From a virus: a DNA stretch of 34,955 bases. This document shows positions 662-34,470 of the stretch, one piece after another (positions within the stretch are counted from its first letter, which is position 1; each line of letters opens with the position of its first letter). The stretch lies in UHGV virus genome UHGV-0055450; one strand, written 5' to 3'. The notes below the pieces were generated by a model, which was given only the letters and a program-made list of their open reading frames with translations, made no database searches and was not told the origin of the DNA. Position numbers and translations under genes: made by a program.

Positions 662-676
662 TTACCTTAAAGGTAT
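662..676. promoter_or_regulatory. Operator-like palindrome TTACC-N5-GGTAt (one mismatch) upstream of the integrase gene
   Basis: TTACCttaaaGGTAT; member of the dispersed TTACC-N5-GGTAA family, 43 bp upstream of the integrase start. Confidence 0.45.
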
Positions 677-718
677 ACTCTCATACCGTCATGAAAATGG
701 TTTCTATACGGGTGAATT

Positions 719-1969
719 GTGCTTACCGATACAAAATTAAAAAACCTCAAGCCACAGGACAAACTGTACAAAGTTTCCGATCGTGACGGGCTGTATGTAG
801 CTGTGCTTACGTCAGGTACGGTCTCGTTTCGCTATGACTACCGTATCAACGGTCGCCGCGAAACACTGGTAATCGGGCAGTATGGGCGTGACGGTATCAG
901 CCTGGCAGAAGCGCGAGAAGAACTGATTGCTGCAAAGAAGCTGCTTAAAGCAGGCCAGTCGCCGGCTGCGGCTAAACGTGACGGTATCAAAAAGATTCGT
1001 GGTGCCGAGACGTTTGCGGTACATACCGACAGTTATATGAAACACGTCATCCTGGCTGAAAGTACCCGCGCAATGAAGCAGGCGGTGATCGACCGTGACA
1101 TACTTCCGGTTCTTGGCAACAAAATGATGGCTGAAATTACCACATCGATGGTTCGTGATTTGTGTGACCGGATTGTCGAACGCGGTGGTCGGGCAACAGC
1201 AGTACAGGCCAGGGAGATCATCAGCAGCGTATACCGTCACGCCAATGACCGTGGTCATGGTTTGTTTAATCCTGCTGCTGACATTAAACCTTCGTCTATC
1301 GCCATATTTAAACCACGAGAGCGAACACTGACACCAGAAGAAATTGGTCTGTTCTTCCGCACGCTGGATGCCATTGGTGCTATGGGCACTATGAAAATGG
1401 CTTTAAAGCTGGTGCTTATCACTATGGTTCGTAAAGGCGAATTCACCAATGCAACGTGGGATGAAATAGATTTTAAAAAATGGACATGGACAATTCCTTC
1501 AGACCGCATGAAGGGAAGCCGGGCGCATGTTATTTACCTGCCTAAACAGGCTCAGGATATATTGGTCGGGTTGCAGATGTGCGCTGGTGGAAGTGAATAT
1601 CTGGTTCCTGGTCGTTACAATTTCAGGAAGCCATTATCTAATGCCGCGCTGAACTCTCTGATCGACAGAACGGTGAAAATAATAAATGAAGATGGTGAGC
1701 ATATTCAGGACTTCACCGTACACGATATGCGCCGTACAGCCAGTACGTTGTTGCATGAGGCTGGTTATCCTTCAGACTGGATTGAAAAGGCTCTGGCACA
1801 TGAGCAGAAAGGTGTGCGCGCCGTATATAACAAAGCGGAATACGCCAGACAGCGCGCCTACATGTTGCAGCAGTGGTCCGATATGATTGATTCCTGGATT
1901 AACGGGGAGCATACGGATCTGATTCCGTTCTCCCCGTCGAAGTTTGAGAAGTGGATGGCGGGGGAATAA
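719..1969 (+). CDS. int: Tyrosine integrase, P4-type (site-specific recombinase)
   Basis: 416-aa ORF with GTG start. N-terminal arm-binding region (LKNLKPQDKLYKVSDRDGLYVAV) and C-terminal catalytic signature HDMRRTASTLL ... LAHEQKGVRAVYNKAEY. First prophage gene next to guaA. Confidence 0.9.
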   Translation: MLTDTKLKNLKPQDKLYKVSDRDGLYVAVLTSGTVSFRYDYRINGRRETLVIGQYGRDGISLAEAREELIAAKKLLKAGQSPAAAKRDGIKKIRGAETFAVHTDSYMKHVILAESTRAMKQAVIDRDILPVLGNKMMAEITTSMVRDLCDRIVERGGRATAVQAREIISSVYRHANDRGHGLFNPAADIKPSSIAIFKPRERTLTPEEIGLFFRTLDAIGAMGTMKMALKLVLITMVRKGEFTNATWDEIDFKKWTWTIPSDRMKGSRAHVIYLPKQAQDILVGLQMCAGGSEYLVPGRYNFRKPLSNAALNSLIDRTVKIINEDGEHIQDFTVHDMRRTASTLLHEAGYPSDWIEKALAHEQKGVRAVYNKAEYARQRAYMLQQWSDMIDSWINGEHTDLIPFSPSKFEKWMAGE

Positions 1970-1972
1970 CGT

Positions 1973-2167
1973 TTAATAGTTCTGCTGATTTTCTTCCATC
2001 TCTGCTTCTGCTGCCAGTGATTCAATTTTGTTTTCGAATATTGCTGACAGTGTTGCAAATTCAGCATCAGTGACAGCGGGAATTGGAACAAACCTGATCC
2101 CGCTGTGTGCAAGCATGTTTGCAGTTTCAAGGCATTTTCTTAAATCTGCTGGTGATGCCCTGTTCAT
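1973..2167 (-). CDS. Hypothetical small protein (64 aa)
   Basis: MNRASPADLRKCLETANMLAHSGIRFVPIPAV...; its ATG overlaps the methyltransferase stop (ATGA), suggesting translational coupling; last gene of the leftward operon. Confidence 0.45.
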   Translation of the reverse strand: MNRASPADLRKCLETANMLAHSGIRFVPIPAVTDAEFATLSAIFENKIESLAAEAEMEENQQNY

Positions 2168-2826
2168 GCAGCACGCTCCCGCCCCTGGTTGTCTGTTGGT
2201 GACAGCGGAGCATTGCTGAATGCATTTGTTAATCCGCCAATATCCAACGCGTATCCAGGGTGTAGTTGCACTGCCGGGTCTTCGCACTGATTACCCCAAA
2301 CATCGAAGCCATGAGACGTCTGGCGGGCGAACAGTTCAATGCGAGAAACATCGCCTAATAATTGCACAAGTTTTTCACGAACGACATCTGGTTTTCTTGA
2401 ATGCTCAAGCCGCGGTGCGGTAAATGACTGAACGATACCTGCATTAATGCGCGGAGGTAGTTTTCCCTTTACCGCAAACAGGCAATCTTCACTATTGGCG
2501 CGAGTCATGTGTCCCATACCCATAACCAGTTTATCTGGTTGTCGACTACCACATTTTATCCACGTGAAGCCCTTCATGGTCATCAGACGGAATCCCCAGG
2601 CTTCAACAACTTTTAGTGCTTCGAGTGGTTGTGTTGGCACCCACCACATGGCCAACAGACAGTTTTCACCGGCCAAATCCCACACAGGAAGGCGGCAGAT
2701 ATCCAGCACACTCATAACCGGATATTTAAAACCGGCACCGCGATTACCATCTGTGGCTTTGTCCCGGTATGCCCAGGGTGGATCTGCATAGATTAGTGTG
2801 TATTTCTTAGTCATAAACCACCCCAC
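2164..2826 (-). CDS. DNA N6-adenine methyltransferase, MT-A70-like (orphan)
   Basis: DPPW catalytic motif in LIYADPPWAY near the N-terminus; no restriction endonuclease gene adjacent. The likelier start is the ATG at 2814 (MTKKYTLIYADPPW). Confidence 0.8.
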   Translation of the reverse strand: MGWFMTKKYTLIYADPPWAYRDKATDGNRGAGFKYPVMSVLDICRLPVWDLAGENCLLAMWWVPTQPLEALKVVEAWGFRLMTMKGFTWIKCGSRQPDKLVMGMGHMTRANSEDCLFAVKGKLPPRINAGIVQSFTAPRLEHSRKPDVVREKLVQLLGDVSRIELFARQTSHGFDVWGNQCEDPAVQLHPGYALDIGGLTNAFSNAPLSPTDNQGRERAA

Positions 2827-3106
2827 AACATCCTATGCCGCTATAGTCGCCACGGCGAAGTCCGTTACCTTTTGTGATACATTGGTCCCTGCGAATCGCG
2901 ATCCTTGCACGTTCAACATCACCAGAAGCAACATCCATACACTGAAGCCAAAGGTGGGCGGCAATGCGGAACTGCCCTTTTTTCTCTCTTTCAATCGCGC
3001 GTTTTTCGATCTCTATCGCCGCAGGAGTAACGGCGACAATCTTTGACGGACTGCGCATTGAAACCTTATTCATGTGATATTTTTCAAGTCGGCTTAACTT
3101 TCTCAC
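2807..3106 (-). CDS. Hypothetical protein (99 aa)
   Basis: ORF in the leftward operon between the AlpA-like gene and the methyltransferase; GTG start preceded by GAGGG; no recognisable motif. Confidence 0.4.
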   Translation of the reverse strand: MRKLSRLEKYHMNKVSMRSPSKIVAVTPAAIEIEKRAIEREKKGQFRIAAHLWLQCMDVASGDVERARIAIRRDQCITKGNGLRRGDYSGIGCCGVVYD

Positions 3107-3215
3107 TTAATCCAACCCTCTCTGAAAATTAATGCCAGCAGATAAAGCCATGCTGAAACAGAGGCCAGGAATAAGTACCATCCTGACCATTTGCTCCAGT
3201 GCCTTAGCAGCACAC

Positions 3216-3464
3216 TCATGCCGCGTTGCTCACGGGACGATATACACGTTGCTGAACAGGAGGTTTTTTACCCTGGAACTCTGCCGGGCTTGCTGCCTGA
3301 CGTTCATCAAGCCAACGCTCAACTTCATCACGGTTCCATGCGCAGCGTTTATCGGTGATATACCAGCGTTTAGGAAATTCCCCTGCGCGCTCCATACGGT
3401 CGATAGTGCTCCATGACAGTGGAACCACCGCCAGGAGTTCCTTCTTACCTAATGCACCTTTCAT
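3216..3464 (-). CDS. AlpA-family DNA-binding protein (putative excisionase or transcriptional regulator)
   Basis: 82 aa; LLAVVPLSWSTIDRMERAGEFPKR...WNRDEVERWLDER fits the AlpA/Xis-type helix-turn-helix pattern. Confidence 0.6.
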   Translation of the reverse strand: MKGALGKKELLAVVPLSWSTIDRMERAGEFPKRWYITDKRCAWNRDEVERWLDERQAASPAEFQGKKPPVQQRVYRPVSNAA

Positions 3465-3513
3465 AAATACCTCTCTTGGTTGCAGTGCGGCGCGCGTGGC
3501 GCCGCGGTGGTGG

Positions 3514-4455
3514 TTACATAGATGTTTCGTTTAATTCTTCCCGACGAACGCTGTAAACGTCGGTGGCTTTTGCCAGCAGTTCGTCATCATCTGAAAGTTT
3601 TTGTGCAATGTATTTGTAAGCCTTATCCAGTTCGGAGACAGTGCTGTAATTCATCGCTGCGCTGGTAAAGGCCATCAGCATTTCTTCTGGATCACGGCTG
3701 TCCGATTTACGCGTTTGCTCATCAGGCTTTTTCGCTGGTTTAGCGTTGATCAGACTGTTCATTCCCGCAGCAGTGGTCGTTTGCGGAGTAATGTCTCGCT
3801 CAACGCGCGGTGCCGTTTCCTGTAATTCGTCTGGGGTGTAGACGCCCATGATTACGTCAGGACAGTGCAGGCGAGACCAGCGTTTTGTCGCAAGGTATGC
3901 GAGTTGTTGTTTCGGATCACTGGCCCAAAGTGTGGAGTTTCTTACCTGTGCTTGAGACAGCATTAACTCAAGCACTCGAGGTTGATCCTCGCCCTTCATG
4001 GTTGCCCATACGCGAACACCGCAGCCTTCTTCGTCTTTTAGAGTCCAGCCTGGTGCGATATATGGATTGCCGTTTTTGGATGTTTTCTCAACAAACTTAC
4101 CGATCACGCGTTCCCACGGCCCGAACCACTCGTAGTTGATGCGATCTTTTGTTGGCGACATCGTTGAGATAACTGCGTTTACTAATTGGGCTTCATAACC
4201 TAGCGTGCCGTTCACAACATGGGTTTTCTGAGCCACGGCAAACGGGTTCATTCCCCACTGCGCAGCCTGCATTGCCACGGCCATGCAATCAGCTGGTTTC
4301 CCGGCGAGGTGCGCCGGTACCGTTACGCGGCTTTGCGCCATTACCTCGGCGAATTTCATCAGTTGGTTCAAGCCGTCTGGGCTGAAAATAGTTGCAGCAG
4401 TTCCAGCGATTGCTGTGTCTACTGGTGCGTTGATGTTTGCGATGTCGTTGCTCAT
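3514..4455 (-). CDS. Single-strand annealing protein, RecT/Redbeta family
   Basis: Core ...AAQWGMNPFAVAQKTHVVNGTLGYEAQLVNAVI... and ERDITPQ resemble RecT/Bet. The ATG at 4455 overlaps the exonuclease stop (ATGA); the ORF track extends it to 4482. Confidence 0.75.
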   Translation of the reverse strand: MSNDIANINAPVDTAIAGTAATIFSPDGLNQLMKFAEVMAQSRVTVPAHLAGKPADCMAVAMQAAQWGMNPFAVAQKTHVVNGTLGYEAQLVNAVISTMSPTKDRINYEWFGPWERVIGKFVEKTSKNGNPYIAPGWTLKDEEGCGVRVWATMKGEDQPRVLELMLSQAQVRNSTLWASDPKQQLAYLATKRWSRLHCPDVIMGVYTPDELQETAPRVERDITPQTTTAAGMNSLINAKPAKKPDEQTRKSDSRDPEEMLMAFTSAAMNYSTVSELDKAYKYIAQKLSDDDELLAKATDVYSVRREELNETSM

Positions 4456-5569: not shown

Positions 5570-5571
5570 TA

Positions 5572-5724
5572 TCAGCCCTCCCATATCTCGTTATCGTTGG
5601 CCACATCGCGAGCTTCTTTGCTGACGAAAGCCCACTTAATACCTTCCTGTAAGGTGCGGAACTTCCAGCTCATGAATCCGCATGCAGTAACGCAGTACCA
5701 ACCGTTGATGATTTTCCACTGCAT
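5572..5724 (-). CDS. Hypothetical small Trp/Cys-rich protein (50 aa), first gene of the leftward early operon
   Basis: Hand-translated MQWKIINGWYCVTACGFMSWKFRTLQEGIKWAFVSKEARDVANDNEIWEG*; GAGGT sits 9 nt upstream of the ATG; below the length cutoff of the supplied ORF track. Confidence 0.4.
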   Translation of the reverse strand: MQWKIINGWYCVTACGFMSWKFRTLQEGIKWAFVSKEARDVANDNEIWEG

Positions 5725-5743
5725 AACTTGTTACCTCGGTCTG

Positions 5744-5820
5744 TTACCGTTGAGGTAATAATTATGCGTATTTGGTTTGATGTCAATAGATATGAGTTAA
5801 AAAAATTACCCATCAGGTAA
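5744..5820 (-). promoter_or_regulatory. Leftward early promoter region with two operator palindromes (OL-like)
   Basis: Perfect TTACCgttgaGGTAA (5744-5758) and TTACCcatcaGGTAA (5806-5820) flank a perfect -35 TTGACA on the minus strand (plus-strand tgtcaa, 5781-5786). Confidence 0.5.
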
Positions 5821-5832
5821 TAGTACAGGCAA

Positions 5833-5855
5833 TAAAAAAGCCGCCAGAAGGCGGC
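5833..5855 (-). terminator. Rho-independent terminator after the repressor gene
   Basis: Minus strand reads GCCGCC-TTCT-GGCGGC followed by TTTTTT. Confidence 0.6.
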
Positions 5856-5877
5856 TTACTTACTGAAAAGTATGATT

Positions 5878-6462
5878 TTATTGTTTGTTTTTTTCGTTCT
5901 GGTTGATGACAAATTCAATGTAACTTTCGATCTTTGCTTTCTCGGTTTCGGGTAACAATGCGTAGCGCGAGCGGTCATAGTTGATGGTCGCAGGGTCGTG
6001 CGGGTGAATCAGTAATTCATAGCCGTGACGCCCGAATGCGGATGCAACATTCTCCAGGGTGGAAATGGAAACGCTGACCTCATTGTTTAACAGGCGGCTG
6101 ATTGTCACCTGGGCGACGCCGGATGCGCGGTGAAGTTTTCCCTGTGTTGAAAGGTCGCGGCTTTCGCTCATCCAGCGTTCCAGGTTGTGAGCCGCCAGCT
6201 GACCAATGTCGCTTGGGCCGACAGGCTGAAAACCTTCCTGAGAAAGCGAGCGATCGATATCAAGCCAGTTACGGGGTTTATTGGCGGCAGCTTCAATTTT
6301 TCGCGCAACCTGGTCGCCGATAACCTTCTTGCCAAGAGCCCAGCGGTTTACCAGATTTGCCTGAGTTCCAAGTTTTTCTGCCATCCGCGTCTGAACACCA
6401 TTGAATTCACGGTCGATCAAGTCGTTGAGATTTTGCCTGCGGACGTCCTGGATACTTTTCAT
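5878..6462 (-). CDS. CI-like prophage repressor with two helix-turn-helix regions and no recognisable LexA-type autopeptidase domain
   Basis: 194 aa; HTH-like segments QTRMAEKLGTQANLVNRWALGKK and ASGVAQVTISRLLNNEVSVSISTLENVASAFG; no Ser/Lys peptidase motif seen; divergent from the cro-like gene across an operator-rich spacer. Confidence 0.75.
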   Translation of the reverse strand: MKSIQDVRRQNLNDLIDREFNGVQTRMAEKLGTQANLVNRWALGKKVIGDQVARKIEAAANKPRNWLDIDRSLSQEGFQPVGPSDIGQLAAHNLERWMSESRDLSTQGKLHRASGVAQVTISRLLNNEVSVSISTLENVASAFGRHGYELLIHPHDPATINYDRSRYALLPETEKAKIESYIEFVINQNEKNKQ

Positions 6463-6517
6463 TTTCTGGAAAATCGCCTCATATATGAATCAGTAGATGA
6501 TTCAATTTAAAGCAATA

Positions 6518-6580
6518 TTACCCAACAGGTAAATGCACCTCATAGGTAACTATCCTTGATTTTTGTTACCTTATGGGTGA
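6518..6580. promoter_or_regulatory. Tripartite operator and divergent promoter region between repressor and cro (OR-like)
   Basis: TTACCcaacaGGTAA (6518-6532), GcACCtcataGGTAA (6535-6549), TTACCttatgGGTgA (6566-6580). Rightward promoter: -35 TTGTTA (6563-6568), 17-bp spacer, -10 TATTAT (6586-6591). Confidence 0.6.
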
Positions 6581-6616
6581 ATATTTATTATCTGAAATAA
6601 ATATCAGGCAATAGCT

Positions 6617-6847
6617 ATGAGCGATAACGGACATTTCGATTTCAAAAAGCACTGGCTTGCACTTACTCCGGATGAGCGTGAAGCCTTCGCACAGGAAGCC
6701 GGAACGACGAGTCACTATATCCAGACTCACTTAACAGGTAAGCGCAAAATGCCAGGTAAAGTATTGATGAATGGGCTTTTTAAAGCCTGTAAAACAAGAC
6801 AGTGGTTGCGCTCAAAAGCAGAACTGGCATACTTCTTCTACTCATGA
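6617..6847 (+). CDS. Cro-like small DNA-binding regulator
   Basis: 76 aa, divergent from the repressor; HTH-like segment EAFAQEAGTTSHYIQTHLTG; position equivalent to cro. Confidence 0.6.
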   Translation: MSDNGHFDFKKHWLALTPDEREAFAQEAGTTSHYIQTHLTGKRKMPGKVLMNGLFKACKTRQWLRSKAELAYFFYS

Positions 6848-6868
6848 TATCCAGCTACACCCCTCTGT

Positions 6869-6893
6869 AGACCGCCACCCGGCGGTCTTTTTA
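6869..6893 (+). terminator. Rho-independent terminator after cro (tR1-like)
   Basis: AGACCGCC-(ACCC)-GGCGGTCT followed by TTTTT. Confidence 0.65.
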
Positions 6894-6902
6894 TATCTAT
6901 TC

Positions 6903-6917
6903 GTACCTCAAAGGTAA
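6903..6917. promoter_or_regulatory. Operator-like palindrome gTACC-N5-GGTAA between cro and the downstream genes
   Basis: GTACCtcaaaGGTAAtaaaaa lies immediately after the cro terminator; the right half overlaps a TAATAA -10-like hexamer. Confidence 0.4.
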
Positions 6918-6997
6918 TAAAAAACCAAATATGGTTGATCTTTTTTTTGTGTCAGCACAAAATGACCGTAATCCCAATACTAATAACAGGGCTTACC

Positions 6998-7198
6998 ATG
7001 GAAATCATTACACGTATTGATGCCGCAAAGCGCGGACTTAAACGCTACTACACCGGAAAAACATGTAAGCACGGACATGACAGTGAACGCTGGGTTTACA
7101 ACGGACACTGTGTTGAGTGCACCATGGAATCAAACCGTCGTATCAGGGCAGAGATTAAGCAGATCATGATTAATTCCTCCCCACAACATTCAAGCTGA
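6998..7198 (+). CDS. Hypothetical small Cys/His-rich protein (about 66 aa)
   Basis: MEIITRIDAAKRGLKRYYTGKTCKHGHDSERWVYNGHCVECT... has a zinc-ribbon-like C-x-H-x-H ... C-x2-C pattern; the track ORF starts at 6935 but the ATG at 6998 is the likelier start. Confidence 0.4.
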   Translation: MEIITRIDAAKRGLKRYYTGKTCKHGHDSERWVYNGHCVECTMESNRRIRAEIKQIMINSSPQHSS

Positions 7199-7213: not shown

Positions 7214-8029
7214 ATGAGCAGACATGCAACAGATTGGGCCTGGGAGACAGATCCAGGTAGCTCGTCATTAAAGCTCATACTGCTCTCGATGGCTGACAGA
7301 GCCGATGAATATAACCTCTGCTACCCCAGCATAGAACGCCTCGTTAAAGACACTTGCCTGAATAAAAAAACCGTGCAGGCCGGGCTTATATCGCTCATGA
7401 AAATGGGGCTTATTTCAGATACCGGAGAGAGAAAGGGAGCGACGAAAAGAGTGCGGGTTTTCTCTCTTAATATAACCAAAAACGGGAACATTAAAGGCAA
7501 CCGGGAAGGGGGTAATGAACCCGAAAACGGTAATGTTACCGAAAACGGGAATATACCCAAAAACGGGATGTTGAATGATCCCAAAAACGGGATGTTGAAT
7601 GATCCCAAAAACGGGATCCAGAACCAGTCATATAACCAGTCATTTAACCAAGAGAGGGAGAGCAGGACAAAAACCGGGGATTCTGTGCCTCATGACCCCG
7701 GCGCAAACAACGCCGTGATGAATAACTTTGTTCCTCCTGGTGGGCCAGGGAAATTAGGCAAATTTGTCATGCATGAACAATGGCAGCCATCAGATGACTT
7801 TCTTCGGAAAAGCTCATTGCAGGGGATCTACCTGGACAGTCTGCCAACGGCACAGGAACTTGCAGAGTTCAGAATTTACTGGATGGCTGAGGGTAAGGCA
7901 TACCATCAGGCACAGTGGGAGCAGAAGCTGGCAAGGCGGCTGCAGATTAGCAGACAGAAGCAATCAACATTACCTGATAACAACGTTCCGCACTGGAACA
8001 GCCCTGAAGCGTGGGAGGATTTCTTGTGA
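7214..8029 (+). CDS. Replication initiator, lambda O-like
   Basis: N-terminal HTH-type initiator region (LKLILLSMADRADEYNLCYPSIERLVKDTCLNKKTVQAGL); a central Asn-rich repeat peptide encoded by the iterons; sits immediately upstream of the P-like gene. Confidence 0.7.
   Translation: MSRHATDWAWETDPGSSSLKLILLSMADRADEYNLCYPSIERLVKDTCLNKKTVQAGLISLMKMGLISDTGERKGATKRVRVFSLNITKNGNIKGNREGGNEPENGNVTENGNIPKNGMLNDPKNGMLNDPKNGIQNQSYNQSFNQERESRTKTGDSVPHDPGANNAVMNNFVPPGGPGKLGKFVMHEQWQPSDDFLRKSSLQGIYLDSLPTAQELAEFRIYWMAEGKAYHQAQWEQKLARRLQISRQKQSTLPDNNVPHWNSPEAWEDFL
7476..7620. repeat. Iteron array (putative replication origin) inside the O-like gene
   Basis: At least six direct copies of CCAAAAACGGGA / CCGAAAACGGTA with 18-24 bp spacing, including tandem 21-bp units CCCAAAAACGGGATGTTGAATGAT; three GATC sites. 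Confidence 0.65.
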
Positions 8030-8848: not shown

Positions 8849-8925
8849 TTACCTATAAGGTAACAAAATATTCTAAACTCTATTGATTTCGTGTCTTATG
8901 TGGTTTTTAATTACCTTAGAGGTAA
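8849..8925. promoter_or_regulatory. Two operator palindromes between the P-like and DUF1064 genes
   Basis: Perfect TTACCtataaGGTAA (8849-8863) and TTACCttagaGGTAA (8911-8925); the second ends 3 nt before the DUF1064 start codon. Confidence 0.5.
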
Positions 8926-12141: not shown

Positions 12142-12415
12142 CCTGCAACTAGCTGTCAAAGGTGAATACTTCGATGCCATGATTCGCGGAGAGAAAACGG
12201 AAGAGTATCGCCTGTGTAATGACTACTGGAATAAGCGAATTATGTTCCGGGAATATGACCGCCTGATTATCACAAAGGGATATCCGAAGCGTGACGATTC
12301 CAGCCGCAGAATTGACGTTCCGTATGGCGGCTATGAAATCAAGACAATCACACATCCGCACTTCGGCGATAAACCGGTAAAGGTGTTCGCGATAAAGGTA
12401 AATATTGATGGCTAA
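12134..12415 (+). CDS. ASCH-like domain protein
   Basis: GTG start with AAGGAGG upstream; VKGEYFDAMIRGEKTEEYR resembles the ASCH G-x-K-x2-E-x-R core. Confidence 0.5.
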   Translation: MANLQLAVKGEYFDAMIRGEKTEEYRLCNDYWNKRIMFREYDRLIITKGYPKRDDSSRRIDVPYGGYEIKTITHPHFGDKPVKVFAIKVNIDG

Positions 12416-12746
12416 ATCAGCAGCAGAGCGCAAAGCCGCTCAGAGAGCCAGACAAGCTGCATCTGGTGTGCGTAAGCTGGAGATTGTGCTTGATGCTCAG
12501 GAAATTGAAATGCTTGAGCGTAACTGTGCCGCGCGTCGCCCCGGGCGTGCGCCTTACGAATTTGGTGAGTATATAGCGTTACTGATCCGCCAGGATGATG
12601 CACGCGTGCGCGGGCGTATAAAATCGATCAGCAGAAAACGTTGCGGTAAGTGCGGCGAGAGAGTTCCAGTTAATTCATGCCCGTGTAATGGTGACTCGCA
12701 ATGCTGGGTGACTAAAGGCTGGCATGAAACGAAATTAATAGTGTGA
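12408..12746 (+). CDS. Hypothetical protein with Cys-rich C-terminus
   Basis: MAKSAAERKAAQRARQAASGV... with C-terminal CGKCGERVPVNSCPCNGDSQC; AAGGT upstream of the ATG at 12408. Confidence 0.45.
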   Translation: MAKSAAERKAAQRARQAASGVRKLEIVLDAQEIEMLERNCAARRPGRAPYEFGEYIALLIRQDDARVRGRIKSISRKRCGKCGERVPVNSCPCNGDSQCWVTKGWHETKLIV

Positions 12747-12795
12747 CATGTCACGAGTAGATTATGCATGATGAATTTGATGTGTTTTGAATACT

Positions 12796-12821
12796 GCCGC
12801 CAACTATGGCGGCTTTATTTT
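12796..12821 (+). terminator. Rho-independent terminator
   Basis: GCCGCC-(AACTAT)-GGCGGC followed by TTTATTTT. Confidence 0.65.
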
Positions 12822-12832
12822 GCATGGTACTA

Positions 12833-12847
12833 TTACCACAACGGTAA
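12833..12847. promoter_or_regulatory. Operator palindrome upstream of the small terminase gene
   Basis: Perfect TTACCacaacGGTAA; a second partial copy TTACCacggtGGTtA (12851-12865) abuts the start codon. Confidence 0.5.
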
Positions 12848-12864
12848 CTATTACCACGGTGGTT

Positions 12865-13461
12865 ATGATGCTTGCTGAACCTAAAACCTATAAACGCAAA
12901 TCAACGCAATTTAAGCCACTAACAGCAATGCAGGAGGCTTATTGCCAGTCATACATCAAAACGCCTGAAAACCAGACTCAGGCAGCGATTAACGCAGGAT
13001 TCTCCCCAAATACAGCGGCAGTTAAAGCCAGTGTCATGATGCGCGATGAACGCATTCAGAAACGGATTGCCGAGTTGATGGAGGAGCGCAACAAACGAAT
13101 GCGCGTCAGTGCTGATTACGTTCTCATGCGCCTGGTGGAGATCGACCAGATGGACGTGATCGACATCCTCAACGACGATGGGAGCCTTAAACCAATCCGT
13201 GAGTGGCCGAAAATCTGGCGCACTACGCTTAGTGGCTTTGATCTGTCATCGACCATCATGAACATGAACGAGGATTCGATAGAGACAATCCTCAAAAAAA
13301 TTAAATGGCCTGACAAGGTGAAGAACCTTGAGCTGATTGGTAAGCATGTTGATGTCAACGCGTTCAAAGAACGTCTGGATGTTAATGTGAATGTGACAAT
13401 TGCTGATCGCATAGCAGCAGCCAGGAAGCGACTCAAAGAACGTCAGGATGGTAATCAGTGA
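12865..13461 (+). CDS. Terminase small subunit
   Basis: LTAMQEAYCQSYIKTPENQTQAAINAGFSPNTAAVKASVMMRDERIQKRI fits small-terminase HTH families; directly upstream of and overlapping the large terminase. The track ORF start at 12787 would include the terminator and operator, so the ATG at 12865 is preferred. Confidence 0.65.
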   Translation: MMLAEPKTYKRKSTQFKPLTAMQEAYCQSYIKTPENQTQAAINAGFSPNTAAVKASVMMRDERIQKRIAELMEERNKRMRVSADYVLMRLVEIDQMDVIDILNDDGSLKPIREWPKIWRTTLSGFDLSSTIMNMNEDSIETILKKIKWPDKVKNLELIGKHVDVNAFKERLDVNVNVTIADRIAAARKRLKERQDGNQ

Positions 13462-14984: not shown

Positions 14985-15010
14985 GCCAGCTCATCGGCTG
15001 GCTGTTTGTG
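14985..15010 (+). terminator. Terminator hairpin between convergent genes (large terminase and Gp49-like)
   Basis: GCCAGC-(TCATCG)-GCTGGC followed by TGTTTGTG, with an A-rich stretch upstream, so possibly bidirectional. Confidence 0.5.
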
Positions 15011-15023
15011 ACATGTCAATGTG

Positions 15024-15405: not shown

Positions 15406-15430
15406 TAAAAAAATGCCCGGCGAACCGGGC
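15406..15430 (-). terminator. Rho-independent terminator downstream of the tRNA
   Basis: Minus strand reads GCCCGG-TTCG-CCGGGC followed by TTTTTTT. Confidence 0.6.
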
Positions 15431-15593
15431 GAACTGGAAGCAATGAGTTATGCCTTCCGTGGCTGTACTGGTTTACAGCATGAAGTCATCGCAATGGCGT
15501 CCTGCTGTAAAAAGGGCGGTGATAGTCCTTCAAGGGAAACCATCACCGCCAAGCCCCTGGAACTTCTGGCATCACGGTCCTTAGGCGTGATTC

Positions 15594-15670
15594 TGGCGTG
15601 GCATGCAGGATTCGAACCTGCGACCAACCGCTTAGAAGGCGGTTGCTCTGTCCAACTGAGCTAATGCCAC
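15594..15670 (-). tRNA. tRNA-Arg (anticodon UCU), phage-borne variant
   Basis: Reverse complement GTGGCAT-TA-GCTC-AGTTGGACA-GAGC-A-ACCGC-CTTCTAA-GCGGT-TGGTC-GCAGG-TTCGAAT-CCTGC-ATGCCAC-G-CCA folds as a cloverleaf with a 7-bp acceptor stem, TCT anticodon and encoded CCA. Body resembles argU; stems differ. Confidence 0.85.
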
Positions 15671-15992: not shown

Positions 15993-16007
15993 TTACCTGA
16001 AAGGTAA
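15993..16007. promoter_or_regulatory. Operator palindrome upstream of the virion gene cluster
   Basis: Perfect TTACCtgaaaGGTAAtaattt; the right half overlaps a TAATAA -10-like hexamer. Confidence 0.5.
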
Positions 16008-16097
16008 TAATTTGTGCGTTAAATGTCAACTATCTACGATAAATAAATCATATGTGGTTAAATTGGTAATAATTTAATTGCGTACGGAGTCATTGAT

Positions 16098-18997: not shown

Positions 18998-19990
18998 ATG
19001 ACAATGGCTGTTAAAGGCTTAACTGCGCTAACGCTGGCTGACTGGGGTAAGCGCGTCGATCCAAACGGGAAAGTCGATAAGATTATCGAGCTTCTCAGTC
19101 AAACTAACCCGATCCTTCAGGATATGCCTTTTGTCGAAGGGAACCTTCCTACCGGACACCGAACCACCATTCGTTCTGGTTTACCTTCAGCTACCTGGCG
19201 TTTGCTGAACTATGGCGTACAGCCAAGCAAATCAACCACAGTGCAGGTAACCGATTCCGTGGGCATGCTGGAAACCTATGCTGAAGTCGATAAGTCACTG
19301 GCTGATCTGAACGGCAATACCGCCGAATTCCGCCTGTCTGAAGACCGCGCATTTATTGAAGCGATGAATCAGCAGATGGCGCAGACGCTGTTTTATGGTG
19401 ATTCCAGCGTTAACCCTCAGCAGTTTATGGGACTGTCCTCCCGCTATTCCAGCCTGTCTGCGGGTAATGCTCAGAACATCATTGATGCTGGTGGCACGGG
19501 TACAGATAACACCTCAATCTGGTTAGTGGTGTGGGGCGAAAACACCGTGCATGGCATCTTCCCGAAAGGGCAGAAGGCTGGCATCCAGATGGAAGATAAA
19601 GGCCAGGTGACACTGGAAGATGCTAATGGCGGCAAGTACGAAGGCTATCGCACCCATTATAAATGGGATAACGGACTTGCTCTGCGTGACTGGCGTTATG
19701 TTGTTCGCATTGCAAACATCGATGTCAGCAATCTTTCAGAACCTTCCTCTGCCGCAAATATTGCGAAGTTGATGGTTAAAGCACTGCATCGCATTCCAAA
19801 CCGTGGCATGGGCCGCCCGGTGTTCTACATGAACCGCACTGTAGGCCAGGCTCTTGATCTGCAATCTCTGGAGAAAACATCTCTGGCTATCAGCGTAAAA
19901 GAGACTGAAGGCGAGTGGTGGACTTCATTCCGTGGTGTACCAATCCGTGAAACTGATGCGCTTCTGGAAACAGAAGCCCGCGTGGTGTAA
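18998..19990 (+). CDS. Major capsid protein
   Basis: About 330 aa, directly after the scaffold gene and followed by a hairpin; assigned by size and synteny. The ATG at 19004 has better spacing from the AGAGGA box. Confidence 0.65.
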   Translation: MTMAVKGLTALTLADWGKRVDPNGKVDKIIELLSQTNPILQDMPFVEGNLPTGHRTTIRSGLPSATWRLLNYGVQPSKSTTVQVTDSVGMLETYAEVDKSLADLNGNTAEFRLSEDRAFIEAMNQQMAQTLFYGDSSVNPQQFMGLSSRYSSLSAGNAQNIIDAGGTGTDNTSIWLVVWGENTVHGIFPKGQKAGIQMEDKGQVTLEDANGGKYEGYRTHYKWDNGLALRDWRYVVRIANIDVSNLSEPSSAANIAKLMVKALHRIPNRGMGRPVFYMNRTVGQALDLQSLEKTSLAISVKETEGEWWTSFRGVPIRETDALLETEARVV

Positions 19991-31000: not shown

Positions 31001-31444
31001 CAGCAGGGCGATGCTGCATTCTATCTTGGTGCGCTTGGCACGATTGCGCTTGGCTCAATGGTCTATATGATGAAACAGAAGTTAAGCGGTCGCGATATCG
31101 ACTACAGCTGGAATAACCTTGTGAAAGAGGGGATCGACCGGGGCGGAATGCTTGGCTGGCTCTCTGAGCCGCTGAATACCGTTGAGAACATAAGCGGCGG
31201 TAGGTTTGGTCTTGGCGCGATGTTTGGTGCGCCTCCGGTATCAAGGTTTCAGAGTCGTAATGCTATTGGTGCTTTACTTGGTCCTACCTTTGATCTTGGC
31301 GGTGATGCCGCGACGGTTGCAAATGGTGTACTTAACGGAGAATTTGACAGCCAGCAAACCCACGCTGTCCGTAAAATGCTACCTTTTCAGAATCTGTGGG
31401 CGATATCACCATTACTAAATAAAGTTGAAGAGCAGATGAAATAG
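28055..31444 (+). CDS. Large internal virion / DNA-ejection protein, gp16-like
   Basis: 1129 aa with long coiled-coil stretches; last gene of the core block before the cargo genes. Confidence 0.55.
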   Translation: MPIYEQDPKELLGEDIQQIAAPDDSNFYMETPSLLSAVNPFTSEQRVQRSRQAAFRIDNTLGSFIASAPFSQFDRVEGYNPFDNDAADIKGYEDFADSFINSGSHEETMAIKHRIDKQRTDREYLSEMGGAGTISSLAMGMIDPVNVAAMFIPVGAVARGGSIAETAGRFALANAAGGGVSEAALQATQEARSPMESVSNVVVDALVGGILGAGAQLLAGPSAREAVVNSVGNHLRGMDSPQSIGAAQVFNTTLDQEQLAGLGLANKTLSVTPAGRLAQSPSLVSRQINQQLAENNYFFAKNDEGLATFTAVETKIKQYDAMLYKQMEATRDAYQQYSKSVSARGVKRMNFIDFNEAVGMAMRRGDQSDIPEVSQAAARIRPIFETTKARMQELGILPEDIDVVTAKSYLPRIYKFDKILSDRTEFRGRIANWIQGISAKGADKAGQRIEKINSLLKTAEESAPRADALASEIAEAEKWSGKKILLMEELDKRNKLISQETDTQARLTRIEKELAETSSEKLQARMMKESSDLKTRLDDIAQAKSELPVYQRHMELLDNPRKYRSELRRLQKRANSTTRLNASRERALKQMEPLSREEAEDAADEIVNKIIGAPSGLVPADIIPERLVGRAGFTKSRTLLIPDERIEDFLESDVNYIMESYLRQVAPEIELTAQFGRKDMGEQIRQVSEEYTRLIKEAKTPKRRAVLEKQREADIRDITAMRDRLLGTYGAPQDPRSFFVRAGRVARNINFLRLLGGMTVSAATDLMRPMMQHGLRKSLGPMVSMLKNMDSVKIATRDLREMAVGLDYVLSTRTKAIADLTDPYSRRSAAERGLNWMTQKFGNWTLMNQWNSALKSWSGMIVQSRILDAARQVSAGGTLSKSEMRKMAQVGINEDVLRRIGEQFGKHGEDMDGLLTGHSHLWDDRFAREIFQSAVLKDVDSVIVTPGVGDTPLFFSKEGWKMITQFKTFIFAQHNRVLVSGIQQGDAAFYLGALGTIALGSMVYMMKQKLSGRDIDYSWNNLVKEGIDRGGMLGWLSEPLNTVENISGGRFGLGAMFGAPPVSRFQSRNAIGALLGPTFDLGGDAATVANGVLNGEFDSQQTHAVRKMLPFQNLWAISPLLNKVEEQMK

Positions 31445-31445
31445 G

Positions 31446-32297
31446 ATGAAAAAAATAAATTTGTTTTTTGGCATAGTGCTTTCAATAGTCTCTGTAAATC
31501 CTACAGCTGCCAGTTCATTGCAATGCAATAAGGATAACTTTGATGCATGCAAAACGTGCGAACAATTATCAAAGGCTATCGACTTAAAAGAACCTAATCG
31601 TGGCGATTACTATAGAGGGGCTTTATGGAATGGGCTTTACGCCTCTTATGTAATTAATTGCCCTGTGGTTGCAGAGAAGTTACTGAGCCATGGTGCTATA
31701 CCATCATATGGCGGATATATGGGGTCTATGGGGGCGGTTCTGACAGGAAAATGGCCTCATAACAATGAATCAATAAATCTTTCATGGGCAGATTTGCTTA
31801 TAAAACATGGATTTGATGTTAATAGGCATACGGGGAATTATAAATCAGCTACTGAAGTATGGGCTATAGATAAAAAACAGATTGAATATAAGTCAGTTTT
31901 TGACAAGTTAATTCAATCCAGCGAAGTAAAACCACTCGATCCTTCAAGAAATTTAGAATGGTGTGCGTCTGAAGGGTATCGCTCAGTTGTCGTTTATTCC
32001 CTTAACTCATGTATAGAAAATGCTATAAAACGTTTGGATGACGGTGTTTCTTCAGCGTCTGATATTTCATCAGCAGCCGTAAATTCCTGTACTAGCGATG
32101 TAGAAAATTTCAATAAGCATTTGGCATGCAAAGCAGCTGTTAAAGAAAACTCTGATAAAGAGAGAAGCAACGTTTACCAGTTATTAACCAGTGATAGTCA
32201 AATGAATAAAAATGTTATTGATATGCTGAAGGAAAGAAATATTGAAACGGTTCTTGAATTTAGAGCTGAAAATCGATCAGCGAAAACTGCACAGTGA
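31446..32297 (+). CDS. Secreted Cys-rich cargo protein with possible ankyrin-like repeats
   Basis: Signal-peptide-like N-terminus MKKINLFFGIVLSIVSVNPTAASS; ankyrin-like segments VAEKLLSHGAIPS and ADLLIKHGFDVNRHTG; visibly AT-rich relative to flanking phage genes; own terminator. Confidence 0.6.
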   Translation: MKKINLFFGIVLSIVSVNPTAASSLQCNKDNFDACKTCEQLSKAIDLKEPNRGDYYRGALWNGLYASYVINCPVVAEKLLSHGAIPSYGGYMGSMGAVLTGKWPHNNESINLSWADLLIKHGFDVNRHTGNYKSATEVWAIDKKQIEYKSVFDKLIQSSEVKPLDPSRNLEWCASEGYRSVVVYSLNSCIENAIKRLDDGVSSASDISSAAVNSCTSDVENFNKHLACKAAVKENSDKERSNVYQLLTSDSQMNKNVIDMLKERNIETVLEFRAENRSAKTAQ

Positions 32298-32310
32298 TCA
32301 AACAGGCCGC

Positions 32311-32335
32311 TTTCGCGGCCTTGTTTTTAACGAAT
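32311..32335 (+). terminator. Rho-independent terminator for the secreted-protein gene
   Basis: AGGCCGC-(TTTC)-GCGGCCT followed by TGTTTTT. Confidence 0.65.
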
Positions 32336-32375
32336 GCCACCGCCGCCTGGGTGGGAATCCGCAGACACAAAAAAG

Positions 32376-32396
32376 CCCGCGCCGCGGGCTATTCTT
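32376..32396 (-). terminator. Rho-independent terminator for the convergent leftward gene
   Basis: Minus strand reads GCCCGC-(GGC)-GCGGGC followed by TTTTTT. Confidence 0.6.
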
Positions 32397-32829
32397 CTTC
32401 ATCATAAAAAAGCGGATTGTCGTTTCCATCTGATGAAAGGAAAGGTATGTGTTCTCTTGAAAATCCAACAACGACAATTTCATTATCATTTTTTGCATAA
32501 TGAATGCATTCATTAGAATGCATTCCGCCAGGGTTGAAATTTAAGTTAATGGTATAATTCTTAAATGTGTTTGGATACCATGTTGGCCCACAATGATAAT
32601 GCCAATAATTCTCTTGCTCATAATTGTCTGAGCCGGGAATTTTATCATGGTTATCATCAACCCACGATGGCTTGTTTTTTCCAACAAGCGCCCTTCCATT
32701 GGCAACATCTTCTAAAAACCTTTGTATGATTTTTATTTCATCGTCAGTAAGGAAAGGTCCGTCTACAGCGAAATGGGTGTTGCTTTCCCCATTTAGAAAA
32801 CTATTAGATATTCTAATGTTAAACTTCAA
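32389..32829 (-). CDS. Hypothetical AT-rich cargo protein (146 aa)
   Basis: TTG start with AGGAG 7 nt upstream; contains NYWHYHCGPTWYPNTF and an acidic C-terminus; convergent with the secreted-protein gene. Confidence 0.5.
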   Translation of the reverse strand: MKFNIRISNSFLNGESNTHFAVDGPFLTDDEIKIIQRFLEDVANGRALVGKNKPSWVDDNHDKIPGSDNYEQENYWHYHCGPTWYPNTFKNYTINLNFNPGGMHSNECIHYAKNDNEIVVVGFSREHIPFLSSDGNDNPLFYDEEE

Positions 32830-32849
32830 GACAAACTCCTAATGTGCTT

Positions 32850-33017
32850 CTATTTGGAGCGAAATGCCGCCTTGAAGTCGCTGAAAGATGTTCCTGTCTG
32901 GTAAACCATATCCTTGTCGCGCTCTTTGCTTGCGCGGCCAAGCATAACTTTTCCAATGACATCCCAGCATTGCTTGGCTTGTTCATTGTGCTGAGTACGA
33001 TTTTTCAACGCTGTCAT
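32850..33017 (-). CDS. Hypothetical small protein (55 aa)
   Basis: Hand-translated MTALKNRTQHNEQAKQCWDVIGKVMLGRASKERDKDMVYQTGTSFSDFKAAFRSK*; AAGGAGG lies 6 nt upstream of the ATG; below the track length cutoff. Confidence 0.4.
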   Translation of the reverse strand: MTALKNRTQHNEQAKQCWDVIGKVMLGRASKERDKDMVYQTGTSFSDFKAAFRSK

Positions 33018-33029
33018 ATCGCGCCTCCT

Positions 33030-33044
33030 TTACCTTTAAGGTAA
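33030..33044. promoter_or_regulatory. Operator palindrome overlapping the RBS of the 55-aa gene
   Basis: Perfect TTACCtttaaGGTAAtagtac; on the minus strand its half-site runs directly into the AGGAGG Shine-Dalgarno. Confidence 0.5.
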
Positions 33045-33115
33045 TAGTACGCTATTCACCCCCAGTCTGCAATCTGTACAGAATTATTTAAAGGCACGTC
33101 CCTGTGCCGCCGCCG

Positions 33116-33808
33116 TCAGAAGAACCCAGCCTTGTCGTTGATGTACTCCGCGTGTGTCTGGATATCACGCAGGCATTTGCTCACACCGACGATGTAGCAG
33201 AACATGGTGGTCAGCTCCGCCGCCGCGCCCGATACGTCGTGCCCGTCGTCCTGTAACTGGTTCAGCAGATTCATCAGCAGTGAGTTCTCCGTCAGGCCGA
33301 GAACACCAGACGGCGAATGAATCAGGCTGCGGTAGCCGGGCTTCAGCGGGGCGCTGTAGGTTTTGTTCTCTATCTTCATTGCCTGCATCACTGCTGATGC
33401 TGTGGCGTTTGCAACCTGGTCGGCAACCATCTTTATGCGTTCTTCCTGCGGGAGCGAGTTTTTAATGTAACTTCCGGTGCGGCGGATCTGAGGAAGAACC
33501 TCACCTGTAACCCATTCAAGAAATCTGAATGCTCTCGTTCCCTCAGTCATTGCCTCTTTGCAACGCAGAATAAGGATGTAGAGACCTGATTCTGAAACGA
33601 TGGATAGTTCTTGTATTCCACCAGGGGTCTGTATTGAATACAGCCCCTTTTTGTTCCAGCCTTTTTTATCAAGTTTTCTCGCTTGTGTAACATCAATATT
33701 CAAAGCATTGCACACATCTTTGGTGACAAACCAAGGTTCTCCGTCAATCATGAACATACGGATCTGGCAGGATGACTCAAAGGAAAAGATGGAAGGTTTG
33801 GTATTCAT
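33116..33808 (-). CDS. ant: Antirepressor with N-terminal Bro-N-like domain
   Basis: MNTKPSIFSFESSCQIRMFMIDGEPWFVTKDVCNALNI fits the Bro-N/antirepressor N-terminal pattern; ATG at 33808 with AAGGTGA upstream. The track ORF extends to 33853. Confidence 0.75.
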   Translation of the reverse strand: MNTKPSIFSFESSCQIRMFMIDGEPWFVTKDVCNALNIDVTQARKLDKKGWNKKGLYSIQTPGGIQELSIVSESGLYILILRCKEAMTEGTRAFRFLEWVTGEVLPQIRRTGSYIKNSLPQEERIKMVADQVANATASAVMQAMKIENKTYSAPLKPGYRSLIHSPSGVLGLTENSLLMNLLNQLQDDGHDVSGAAAELTTMFCYIVGVSKCLRDIQTHAEYINDKAGFF

Positions 33809-33962
33809 GGCGATCACCTTTGTAGTTAGGTTAATCACCACCGCTGAGACCAATCAGATGGTGGTGAACTGTGCAGAGTTGGTCTTACCGGCTACAAAGG
33901 AACCCGGCGCACCTTTCGGTGCCCCCACACAGCCCACCATAGAATAGGTGCGCTTTACACAT

Positions 33963-33981
33963 AAAAAAACCGCTTATGCGG
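33963..33981 (-). terminator. Weak rho-independent terminator upstream of ant
   Basis: Minus strand reads CCGC-ATAA-GCGG followed by seven T; short stem. Confidence 0.4.
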
Positions 33982-33994
33982 CATATGTGCCTCT

Positions 33995-34049
33995 GTAGTA
34001 ATCCGGGAGACCAATCCCGGCACTGGATTTTGCCAGTGCCCGATTACTA
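33995..34049 (-). ncRNA. Candidate structured regulatory RNA or attenuator between the two antirepressor genes
   Basis: Outer stem TAGTAATC / GATTACTA encloses two hairpins, GCACTGG-(CAAAAT)-CCAGTGC and CGGGA-(TTGGTC)-TCCCG, and is followed by the terminator at 33963-33981; no ORF. Confidence 0.25.
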
Positions 34050-34075
34050 TGGCACAAGAGGAGTGCGATGTAAAT

Positions 34076-34090
34076 TTACCGCAAAGGTAA
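34076..34090. promoter_or_regulatory. Operator palindrome between the Ant-paralog and ant
   Basis: Perfect TTACCgcaaaGGTAAatataag. Confidence 0.5.
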
Positions 34091-34121
34091 ATATAAGCAC
34101 TCCATTTGGTAATTGCAAACC

Positions 34122-34379
34122 TTATCTGGTTTGTTTTCGTAATTGTTCGGCACAATAGTCGAGATGTGTTTGCAGATCCTGCATAGACATCTGTGAGCTG
34201 GTGACGTAGTTAATCAGTGCAGTCAGTTCGGCAAGTGGGCCATCGACATTAAATCCATCCTTATCGAGATCCCGGAGTAATTTCATCAAGTGCGATCCCT
34301 CCACCAGTGACCTGACGCCTCCCGGCGTGTGAATCCTTTCGGTAAATCCGTCTTCCAGTGGATAGTGATACTGCTGCAT
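34122..34379 (-). CDS. Small protein homologous to the antirepressor C-terminal domain (about 85 aa)
   Basis: SHLMKLLRDLDKDGFNVDGPLAELTALINYVTSSQMSMQDLQTHLDYC aligns with the Ant C-terminus SLLMNLLNQLQDDGHDVSGAAAELTTMFCYIVGVSKCLRDIQTHAEYI; ATG at 34379 with GGAGAAG upstream. The track ORF extends to 34397. Confidence 0.6.
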   Translation of the reverse strand: MQQYHYPLEDGFTERIHTPGGVRSLVEGSHLMKLLRDLDKDGFNVDGPLAELTALINYVTSSQMSMQDLQTHLDYCAEQLRKQTR

Positions 34380-34398
34380 CTTATCTTCTCCATGCAAT

Positions 34399-34418
34399 AA
34401 CTGTATATTTATACAGTA
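34399..34418. promoter_or_regulatory. LexA (SOS) box in the promoter of the leftward antirepressor operon
   Basis: AACTGTATATTTATACAGTA matches the consensus TACTGTATATATATACAGTA at 18 of 20 positions with the CTGT-N8-ACAG core intact; 20 bp upstream of the 34379 start. Confidence 0.65.
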
Positions 34419-34455
34419 TCAAATAATTTGTTTGCTATCCAGCACGTTTTGCAAA

Positions 34456-34470
34456 TTACCCGAAAGGTAA
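34456..34470. promoter_or_regulatory. Operator palindrome between the ant operon and the tailspike gene
   Basis: Perfect TTACCcgaaaGGTAAtatctat. Confidence 0.5.

Follow-up and report, generated by a model that had tools for sequence, protein, structure and literature searches.

A recurrent palindrome at the control regions of a phiV10/ε15-like Escherichia coli prophage is the probable operator of its master repressor

The virus genome UHGV-0055450, a stretch of 34,955 nucleotides that was analyzed over its full length (the window), contains a 15-bp palindrome, TTACC-N5-GGTAA, that recurs at control regions along the whole genome. The original prediction took the palindrome to be a protein-binding site through which one regulator touches every transcription unit, and this idea is supported by the analysis described here. 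The recurrence is real and far beyond chance. By homology and by annotations in a related phage, the palindrome is very likely the operator of an ε15/SPC32H-type master repressor, Rep, encoded on the minus strand at 5878-6462, and it is probably shared with a Cro-like protein. Sequence matches identify the window as a phiV10/ε15-like podophage prophage of the genus Uetakevirus with guaA as its integration site, and not as the lambdoid prophage it had been called. Prophages of this type are common; among their relatives are phiV10, which is O157:H7 specific, and the Salmonella phages ε15 and SPC32H.

An exact scan found ten perfect copies in the window (5744, 5806, 6518, 8849, 8911, 12833, 15993, 33030, 34076, and 34456), the same ten that had been picked out by eye, compared to 0.04 expected from dinucleotide-preserving shuffles; none of 100 shuffles reached ten perfect copies. 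When up to one mismatch was allowed, 14 sites were found (0.46 expected). These include three of the four near-copies in the original prediction (662, 6566, and 6903), while the fourth (6535) carries two mismatches, and a one-mismatch site at 12851-12865 had been overlooked. All 14 sites lie in the noncoding 7.3% of the window (binomial P of ∼1e−16). The earlier statement that every copy is intergenic holds if the terS start is placed at ATG 12866/12869, as in the gene map used for this scoring, instead of at TTG 12787. The phiV10 RefSeq record starts terS at TTG 12787, which encloses two operators and a terminator-like hairpin in the coding sequence; the annotations of ε15, ZX5, and Tyrion, together with the Shine-Dalgarno sequence GGTGG, make the downstream start the likely one. 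The motif is not equally frequent in unrelated E. coli DNA, as four 50-kb pieces of the E. coli K-12 genome (200 kb) contained no perfect copies and 11 one-mismatch matches. In an unbiased enumeration of inverted repeats of every 5-mer with spacers of 0 to 12 bp, TTACC/N5 ranked first in the window with 10 copies, and the next unrelated palindrome had 3. Isolated half-sites, counted after removal of the full sites, were not notably enriched (∼3.5 per kb in noncoding versus 2.7 per kb in coding DNA), indicating that the unit is the full palindrome, for which the extended consensus is aTTACC-W-rich N5-GGTAAt. The 14 sites, or 15 with the degenerate copy at 6535, fall at about nine control regions. 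They are found at essentially every transcription unit, as had been proposed: int, the leftward early promoter (PL), the rep-cro spacer, downstream of cro, the DUF1064 operon, terS, the virion operon, and the ant/Bro-N/tail fiber region.

Dispersed repressor sites are already known for this genus. The GenBank record of ε15 (AY150271.2) contains seven features marked protein_bind, repressor, and lysogeny, and all seven coincide with matches to TTACC-N5-GGTAA and are orthologous in position to sites in the window. They lie at 12-27 before terS, at 2931-2947 before gp3, at 19895-19911 between gp19 and the tailspike gene, at 32479-32632 (three features upstream of the leftward early genes), and at 35906-35922 before ruvC. 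The ε15 genome has 15 matches with at most one mismatch in total, and those that are not annotated include sites in the rep-cro spacer, at the proximal position of the ruvC pair, before the lysis cassette, and before int. No operators are annotated in the phiV10 record, and the ZX5 paper raises repressor binding at PL as speculation only. The consensus ATTACCWDWWNGGTAAT had no match in a full-text literature search. Since the ε15 record already marks such sites and the Rep/Ant/LexA switch is known from SPC32H, the arrangement is ordinary in kind and is not a new type of regulation, and its novelty had been overestimated. The view that the binding protein could not be told from sequence was, in turn, too pessimistic, since the ε15 record marks the motif as repressor bound and Rep of the window is a homolog of SPC32H Rep.

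The motif and its arrangement are conserved along with Rep. TTACC/N5 is the top-ranking inverted repeat in phiV10, ZX5, Tyrion, BUCT554, ε15, SPC32H, and the Klebsiella phage BUCT711, with 8 to 11 perfect copies in each. In these seven relatives, the spacings between sites are also kept: the 62-bp pairs at PL and before DUF1064 or ruvC, the rep-cro triplet (17 plus 30 bp, or 48 bp), the pair at the terS start (18 to 20 bp), and the pair flanking ant (∼380 bp apart). A one-mismatch site before int and a lysis cassette site, which is outside the window, are conserved as well. Orthologous operators retain their half-sites, while the N5 cores and flanks drift. Comparison of the phiV10 clade with the group of ε15, SPC32H, and BUCT711 gives an overall identity of 42 to 45% for Rep; its N-terminal 72 residues are 53 to 54% identical versus 36 to 37% for the remainder, and an NLVNRW segment is invariant. 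All the phages with at least 60% portal identity that were checked from a portal tblastn listing carry Rep of this type. Cobetia phage Carin1 serves as a weak control: its portal is 50% identical, it was not listed among the tblastn matches to Rep, and its genome lacks the motif. The cI protein of the Pseudomonas siphovirus PseuP_224 shares only the Rep-like N-terminal helix-turn-helix (HTH) domain (39% identity over 65 amino acids), and this genome contains three TTACC-N4-GGTAA sites (10906, 11768, and 11807) that have a spacer one base shorter, all adjoin cI, and are not dispersed. This ties the half-site to the Rep-like HTH domain and indicates that dispersal is a property of Uetakevirus genomes. 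By eye, an unannotated Cro-like open reading frame follows the PseuP_224 sites.

Rep is a 194-amino-acid protein with an N-terminal HTH domain and a C-terminal HTH_3/tetramerization region. In Pfam, residues 106-147 match HTH_3 and residues 21-61 give a weak match to a YdaS-like HTH, and no Peptidase_S24 domain is detected in Rep. A phmmer comparison with the SPC32H Repressor (PDB 5D50_A) gave an E value of 4e−42 over residues 1-190. Secondary literature on SPC32H Rep reports that it binds palindromic DNA as a tetramer in which the DNA-binding dimers are formed "in trans" and that Ant disassembles the tetramer; these sources also tie its tetramerization fold to DNA looping in other regulators. 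Rep is 100% identical to the ORF21 repressor of ZX5, and in the ZX5 paper, overexpression of that repressor abolished free phage and lowered holin and endolysin transcripts by 99.97 to 99.99%. The small Cro-like regulator is encoded divergently from rep (6617-6847, plus strand). It matches phrog_35, "transcriptional repressor," with an E value of 5.6e−13, is 58 to 84% identical across the relatives, and has an invariant AGTTSHYIQ-HLT segment.

What had been described as an antirepressor region holds two different proteins. The SPC32H-type antirepressor gene, ant, is the small gene at 34122-34379 on the minus strand, with a probable start at ATG 34379 judged from alignment; the open reading frame at 34122-34397 matches the SPC32H Anti-repressor (5D50_E) with an E value of 5.4e−47 in phmmer. 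The other gene, at 33116-33853, encodes a Bro-N protein and is not that Ant, and its homolog was called "anti-repressor" by the ZX5 authors. The −10 element predicted for ant (TACTGT, 34418-34413) shares bases with a perfect LexA box, CTGTATATTTATACAG (34401-34416), that is kept upstream of ant in ε15, SPC32H, Tyrion, ZX5, and BUCT554. The presence of the LexA box and ant points to SOS induction via an antirepressor, and not via repressor cleavage. In the 2013 work of Kim and Ryu, ant is reported to be under the control of LexA, which fits the LexA box found here. Another LexA-like box, CTGTACTGGTTTACAG, lies at 15463-15478 inside a small open reading frame (15413-15664) between terL and the virion operon, and it is also present in phiV10 (2722) and ZX5 (22226). 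This second box may be a chance occurrence or a second SOS-controlled element.

The position of the sites relative to promoter elements is equally regular. At PL, which reads from the minus strand, the −35 element TTGACA (5786-5781) and the −10 element AATTAT (5763-5758) are separated by 17 nt. A perfect proximal operator (5744-5758), whose first T doubles as the last T of the −10 element, covers about −7 to +8 of the promoter. The distal operator (5806-5820), also perfect, is spaced 62 bp away and occupies about −70 to −56. This spacing is kept in phiV10, ZX5, ε15, SPC32H, Tyrion, and BUCT554 and is 63 bp in BUCT711. The same two-operator module precedes DUF1064 or ruvC in 8 genomes; in the window, it consists of a perfect distal operator at 8849-8863, a −35 element TTGATT (8883-8888), a −10 element TTTAAT (8906-8911), and a perfect proximal operator at 8911-8925 that abuts the −10 element and whose right half includes the Shine-Dalgarno sequence GAGG of the gene starting at ATG 8929. 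Alignment of the units from seven or eight genomes reveals a fixed 77-bp cassette composed of the distal operator, 19 nt, the −35 element, 17 nt, and a −10 element fused to the proximal operator. The −35 element has the context CTATTGA (TTGACA at PL; TTGATT or TTGAAA before DUF1064/ruvC), and the −10 element is AATTAT, GATTAT, TTTAAT, or TTAAAT, with its last T always the first T of the proximal operator. The operator positions are those given above for PL, the geometry of which is kept in 7 genomes. Second operators lie exactly 62 bp upstream at both PL and the DUF1064 promoter. This is 5.9 helical turns, so that paired operators are on the same face of the helix.

Fusion of the −10 element to an operator is found at four σ70-type promoters in all, the other two being leftward promoters of an accessory region (33116-33853 and 32389-33017) that encodes the Bro-N protein and two small genes and is absent from ε15 and SPC32H. 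One of these has a perfect operator at 33030-33044 that abuts the −10 element (33044-33049; −35 element at 33067-33072) and serves the two small genes (32850-33017 and 32389-32829). The other has a perfect operator at 34076-34090 that abuts the −10 element (34090-34095; −35 element TTGCAA at 34113-34118) and leads into the Bro-N gene. Because each accessory unit is behind its own σ70 promoter with a Rep operator, these genes should be switched on only after removal of Rep. Overall, no fewer than 8 of the 15 sites fall on −35 or −10 elements, and the overlaps with −10 elements or Shine-Dalgarno sequences that had been noticed at several sites are seen here as well.

The rep-cro spacer contains three sites, here called OR sites 1 to 3. 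OR site 1 (6518-6532) is perfect, lies on the rep side, and has orthologs in all of the relatives. OR site 2 (6535-6549), also on the rep side, is the degenerate copy with two mismatches (GCACC-TCATA-GGTAA); its counterpart is perfect at the same +17-bp offset in ε15 (33358), SPC32H (34407), and BUCT711 (6419). OR site 3 (6566-6580) has one mismatch (GGTGA) and overlaps the −35 element and spacer of the rightward cro promoter predicted by a promoter scan (−35 TTGTTA, 6563-6568; −10 TATTAT, 6586-6591), and both its mismatch and its 48-bp offset are kept in phiV10, ZX5, and Tyrion. The scan found no convincing −35/−10 pair for a rep promoter. Directly after the cro terminator (6869-6888) lies a single site with one mismatch (GTACC, 6903-6917), 26 nt before the late-box-like sequence CCAAATATGGTT; the same mismatch occurs in Tyrion, and apparent counterparts are present in BUCT711 and BUCT554.

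The remaining sites precede terS, the virion operon, the ant/tail fiber region, and int. Upstream of terS, a perfect site (12833-12847) lies between a terminator (12796-12822) and the terS start and is orthologous to the ε15 repressor feature at 12-27. A one-mismatch site (GGTTA, 12851-12865) follows at a distance of 18 bp, overlaps the Shine-Dalgarno sequence GGTGG, and abuts ATG 12866; an 18- to 20-bp site pair is present at this position in phiV10, ZX5, ε15, Tyrion, and BUCT554. Neither this pair nor the site at 6903, both of which follow terminators, has a clear σ70 promoter. A single perfect site at 15993-16007, the ortholog of the ε15 feature at 2931-2947, precedes the late box of the virion (gp3/portal) operon by 60 nt. 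In the divergent ant/tail fiber control region, a perfect site at 34456-34470, the ortholog of the ε15 feature at 19895-19911, is 15 nt upstream of the predicted −35 element of ant and 47 nt upstream of the tail fiber late box. The near-site 43 bp upstream of int (662-676) is the weakest assignment of the set. Its single mismatch (GGTAT), which is the same in all relatives, creates a −10-like hexamer, TATACT, and the site is nested in a larger inverted repeat (654-692; GACGGTAT...ATACCGTC). This copy may serve integration or int expression, besides or instead of Rep binding.

Several of these sites are associated with a second conserved element, a near-palindromic box (CCATATGTGGTT or AACCATATATGGTT) on the plus strand at 6929-6940, 8898-8905, 16052-16060, and 34503-34510. 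The box is also found before the lysis cassette in phiV10 (about 24740) and ε15 (about 24750). The sites at 8849, 15993, and 34456 and the lysis cassette site of the relatives are 47 to 60 nt upstream of the box. The promoters of the virion, tail fiber, and lysis genes consist of the box, 7 nt, and a −10-like hexamer, with no −35 hexamer. The box therefore looks like an activator-dependent late-promoter element centered near −23, for which a gp49-like regulator (12405-12746) and a PerC-like protein (2807-3106) are candidate activators.

These observations suggest how the prophage could be silenced and induced. Two N-terminal HTH domains of Rep would read the two TTACC half-sites, and the Cro-like protein would probably occupy the same sites during lytic growth. 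At the four σ70-type promoters, the operator extends from the last base of the −10 element over the transcription start, where bound Rep would block RNA polymerase. A Rep tetramer with two DNA-binding dimers could bridge the operators of a 62-bp pair, and this spacing would suit bridging by a single tetramer to form a micro-loop that encloses the promoter. One site of the rep-cro spacer lies on the cro promoter, and the two on the rep side would presumably serve autoregulation. Other sites lie at the terS start or 26 to 60 nt before the box of −35-less, presumably activator-dependent promoters (virion, tail fiber, and lysis). If Rep silences these promoters directly from its fixed place ahead of them, this would amount to a second mode of repression, in which, for instance, contact with an activator or with the C-terminal domain of the RNA polymerase α subunit is blocked. 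For induction, the components are present in the window, and homology suggests that LexA-controlled Ant binds Rep and strips it from DNA with no RecA-mediated cleavage. A genus-wide 62-bp two-operator looped cassette and direct repressor silencing of −35-less boxed late promoters may both be undescribed, a suggestion that we make only tentatively.

Several points weigh against the assignment of the palindrome to Rep. The repressor sites of ε15 are annotations, and Rep is placed on the sites of the window by homology. The stretch of ε15 equivalent to the site at 662 is annotated with integrase arm-type and RNase III sites and with no repressor site. No convincing σ70 core promoter is overlapped by the sites at 662, 6903, 12833/12851, 15993, and 34456. 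Among the portal tblastn records checked, there was no close relative with a different repressor that would allow a heteroimmune covariation test. Finally, wherever the motif occurs, conservation of the Cro-like protein equals or exceeds that of the N-terminal domain of Rep. With this conservation and the Cro-like open reading frame in PseuP_224, sequence covariation cannot separate Rep from Cro. The main or sole reader of the palindrome might be the Cro-like protein, which surpasses Rep in conservation in all motif-sharing relatives and matches a repressor family, or another regulator such as the gp49-like or PerC-like protein, with Rep acting elsewhere; the location of several sites upstream of putative activator-dependent promoters would fit such a reading. 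We regard this as unlikely. The ε15 record gives the repressor as the bound moiety, secondary accounts place SPC32H Rep on palindromic sites, and the tripartite rep-cro region with operators over the PL start follows the classical plan of a repressor region, with sites common to CI and Cro. For an activator, the separate conserved box CCATATGTGGTT is the better candidate site.

The dispersed, intergenic distribution of the sites is also what would be expected of L5-type stoperators, that is, roadblocks within transcription units that halt elongating RNA polymerase. The sites at 6903 and 12833/12851, which are directly downstream of terminators and lack a convincing σ70 promoter, and those at 8911 and 12851, which are on ribosome-binding sites, would suit such a role, and roadblocks may contribute at a few sites. 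As a general account this is quite improbable, because stoperators are asymmetric, orientation dependent, and bound by a monomer with two DNA-binding domains, whereas the sites here are perfect palindromes, at least 8 are on −35 or −10 elements in a fixed geometry, and Rep is homologous to a tetrameric repressor. We consider it more improbable still that the palindrome acts as RNA, through a hairpin involved in RNase III processing, termination, or translation control, or as the site of a host factor. Each site can fold into a hairpin of 5 to 7 bp (−2 to −7 kcal/mol), RNase III sites are annotated near the ε15 int site, and two sites in the window overlap Shine-Dalgarno sequences. However, the half-site sequence is fixed across 66 sites in 5 genomes, and deviations from it (TCACC, GTACC, GGTAT, GGTGA, and GGTTA) affect a single half-site each, and the other half shows no corresponding change. 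In addition, sites that span −7 to +8 at four promoters would be only half transcribed, and the palindrome, which is identical on both strands, is found at leftward and rightward units alike. The RNA hairpin was rejected on the basis of its weakness and the lack of compensatory changes, and the host factor site was rejected because of the lack of perfect copies in 200 kb of the K-12 genome. The preferred reading is that the palindrome is the operator of Rep, probably shared with the Cro-like protein.

The four phages that best match the immunity/replication region of the window over its full length (vB_EcoP_PAS61, phiV10, phiv142-3, and BP9) are 97.6 to 98.7% identical to it, the Enterobacter phages Tyrion and BUCT554 are ∼78% identical, and all named relatives with retrieved records are classified in the genus Uetakevirus (ε15-like podophages). 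The left end of the window contains the 3′ end of guaA followed by int. Among complete E. coli genomes, 568 contain this guaA-int junction (window positions 1-1000) and 540 of 5,426 contain the immunity region (5700-6950), so that ∼10% of sequenced E. coli strains carry this repressor/operator system. ZX5, HEMP4, and TL-2011b, with 66 to 67% coverage of the immunity region, were considered as a different immunity type, but this was rejected because their Rep proteins are 98.5 to 100% identical to Rep of the window, which indicates that the coverage gap lies elsewhere in the query. The operator map amounts to a predicted Rep regulon for phiV10-type prophages, and the analysis also identified the SPC32H-type antirepressor gene and corrected the likely start of terS. 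The 77-bp two-operator cassettes are compact repressible promoters that can be tested for looping by a structurally characterized tetrameric repressor.

Two further repeated elements were observed in the window. A 12-bp palindrome, GTGACATGTCAC, occurs at 12743-12754 with a variant copy at 15009-15018, and relatives have 2 to 4 copies per genome (2142, 19517, and 39612 in ε15). In the window and ε15, it is located at the 3′ ends of operons near terminators, after the gp49-like gene, terL, and the last virion gene, and it could be the site of a second regulator or a termination-related element. Inside the gene for a DnaT-like replication protein (7214-8029), a 24-bp unit, CCCAAAAACGGGATGTTGAATGAT, is repeated about 2.5 times in tandem at 7556-7620; the copies are iteron-like and possibly mark the phage origin.

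Among known systems, the repressor (gp38) sites of ε15 are the closest. The palindrome is identical, the genome organization and genus are the same, and sites are dispersed in the same way at terS, the gp3/virion operon, the ant/tailspike region, PL, and the promoter before ruvC/DUF1064. The two differ in that Rep is only 42% identical, ε15 has a third PL site 76 bp further on, and the window has two extra operator-controlled leftward promoters (33030 and 34076) in the accessory Bro-N region. With SPC32H, the window shares the Rep-Ant-LexA switch, including homologous Rep and Ant proteins, a LexA box at the ant promoter, the lack of an S24 domain, and the same operator motif and spacings. Here, the C-terminal part of Rep is only ∼36% identical, the window adds the Bro-N protein, and the Rep tetramer and its binding by Ant are predicted for the window by homology. 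The SPC32H switch was reportedly described by Kim and Ryu in 2013 in J Virol and by Kim and coworkers in 2016 in PNAS, with structures 5D50 and 5D4Z in the PDB.

In more distant phages, P1 C1 is a closer functional analog than the L5 repressor. C1 has 22 operators scattered over the genome and loses its activity to the antirepressor Coi, so that in P1 as in the window one repressor would control many separate operons genome-wide and induction would proceed by an antirepressor and not by repressor cleavage. P1 operators are asymmetric 17-mers (ATTGCTCTAATAAATTT), unlike the symmetric 15- to 17-bp sites here, and P1 late genes are controlled indirectly via Lpa. Pfam assigns Rep of the window to general HTH families only and not to a C1 family, and the likeness to P1 is thus functional only. 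The resemblance to L5 that the original prediction drew extends to the silencing of a whole prophage from more than 20 repressor sites in short intergenic spaces. It appears not to extend further, because L5 and other cluster A stoperators are asymmetric 13-mers that block elongation, are orientation dependent, and are bound by a monomer, whereas the sites of the window are symmetric, lie on or beside promoter elements, and belong to a repressor family that is reported to be tetrameric, the oligomeric state here being taken from homology. In lambda as in the window, the repressor gene and cro diverge from an intervening set of three sites, an operator covers the leftward early promoter, and binding is probably cooperative or looped. 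Lambda operators are, however, confined to OL and OR, antitermination governs the late genes, and CI undergoes RecA-dependent cleavage, whereas the window has operators at int, terS, the virion genes, the DUF1064 operon, and the ant/Bro-N region as well, and its repressor has no S24 domain. If real, the second mode of repression at the late promoters would set the phiV10/ε15-like phages apart from lambda, P1, and L5.

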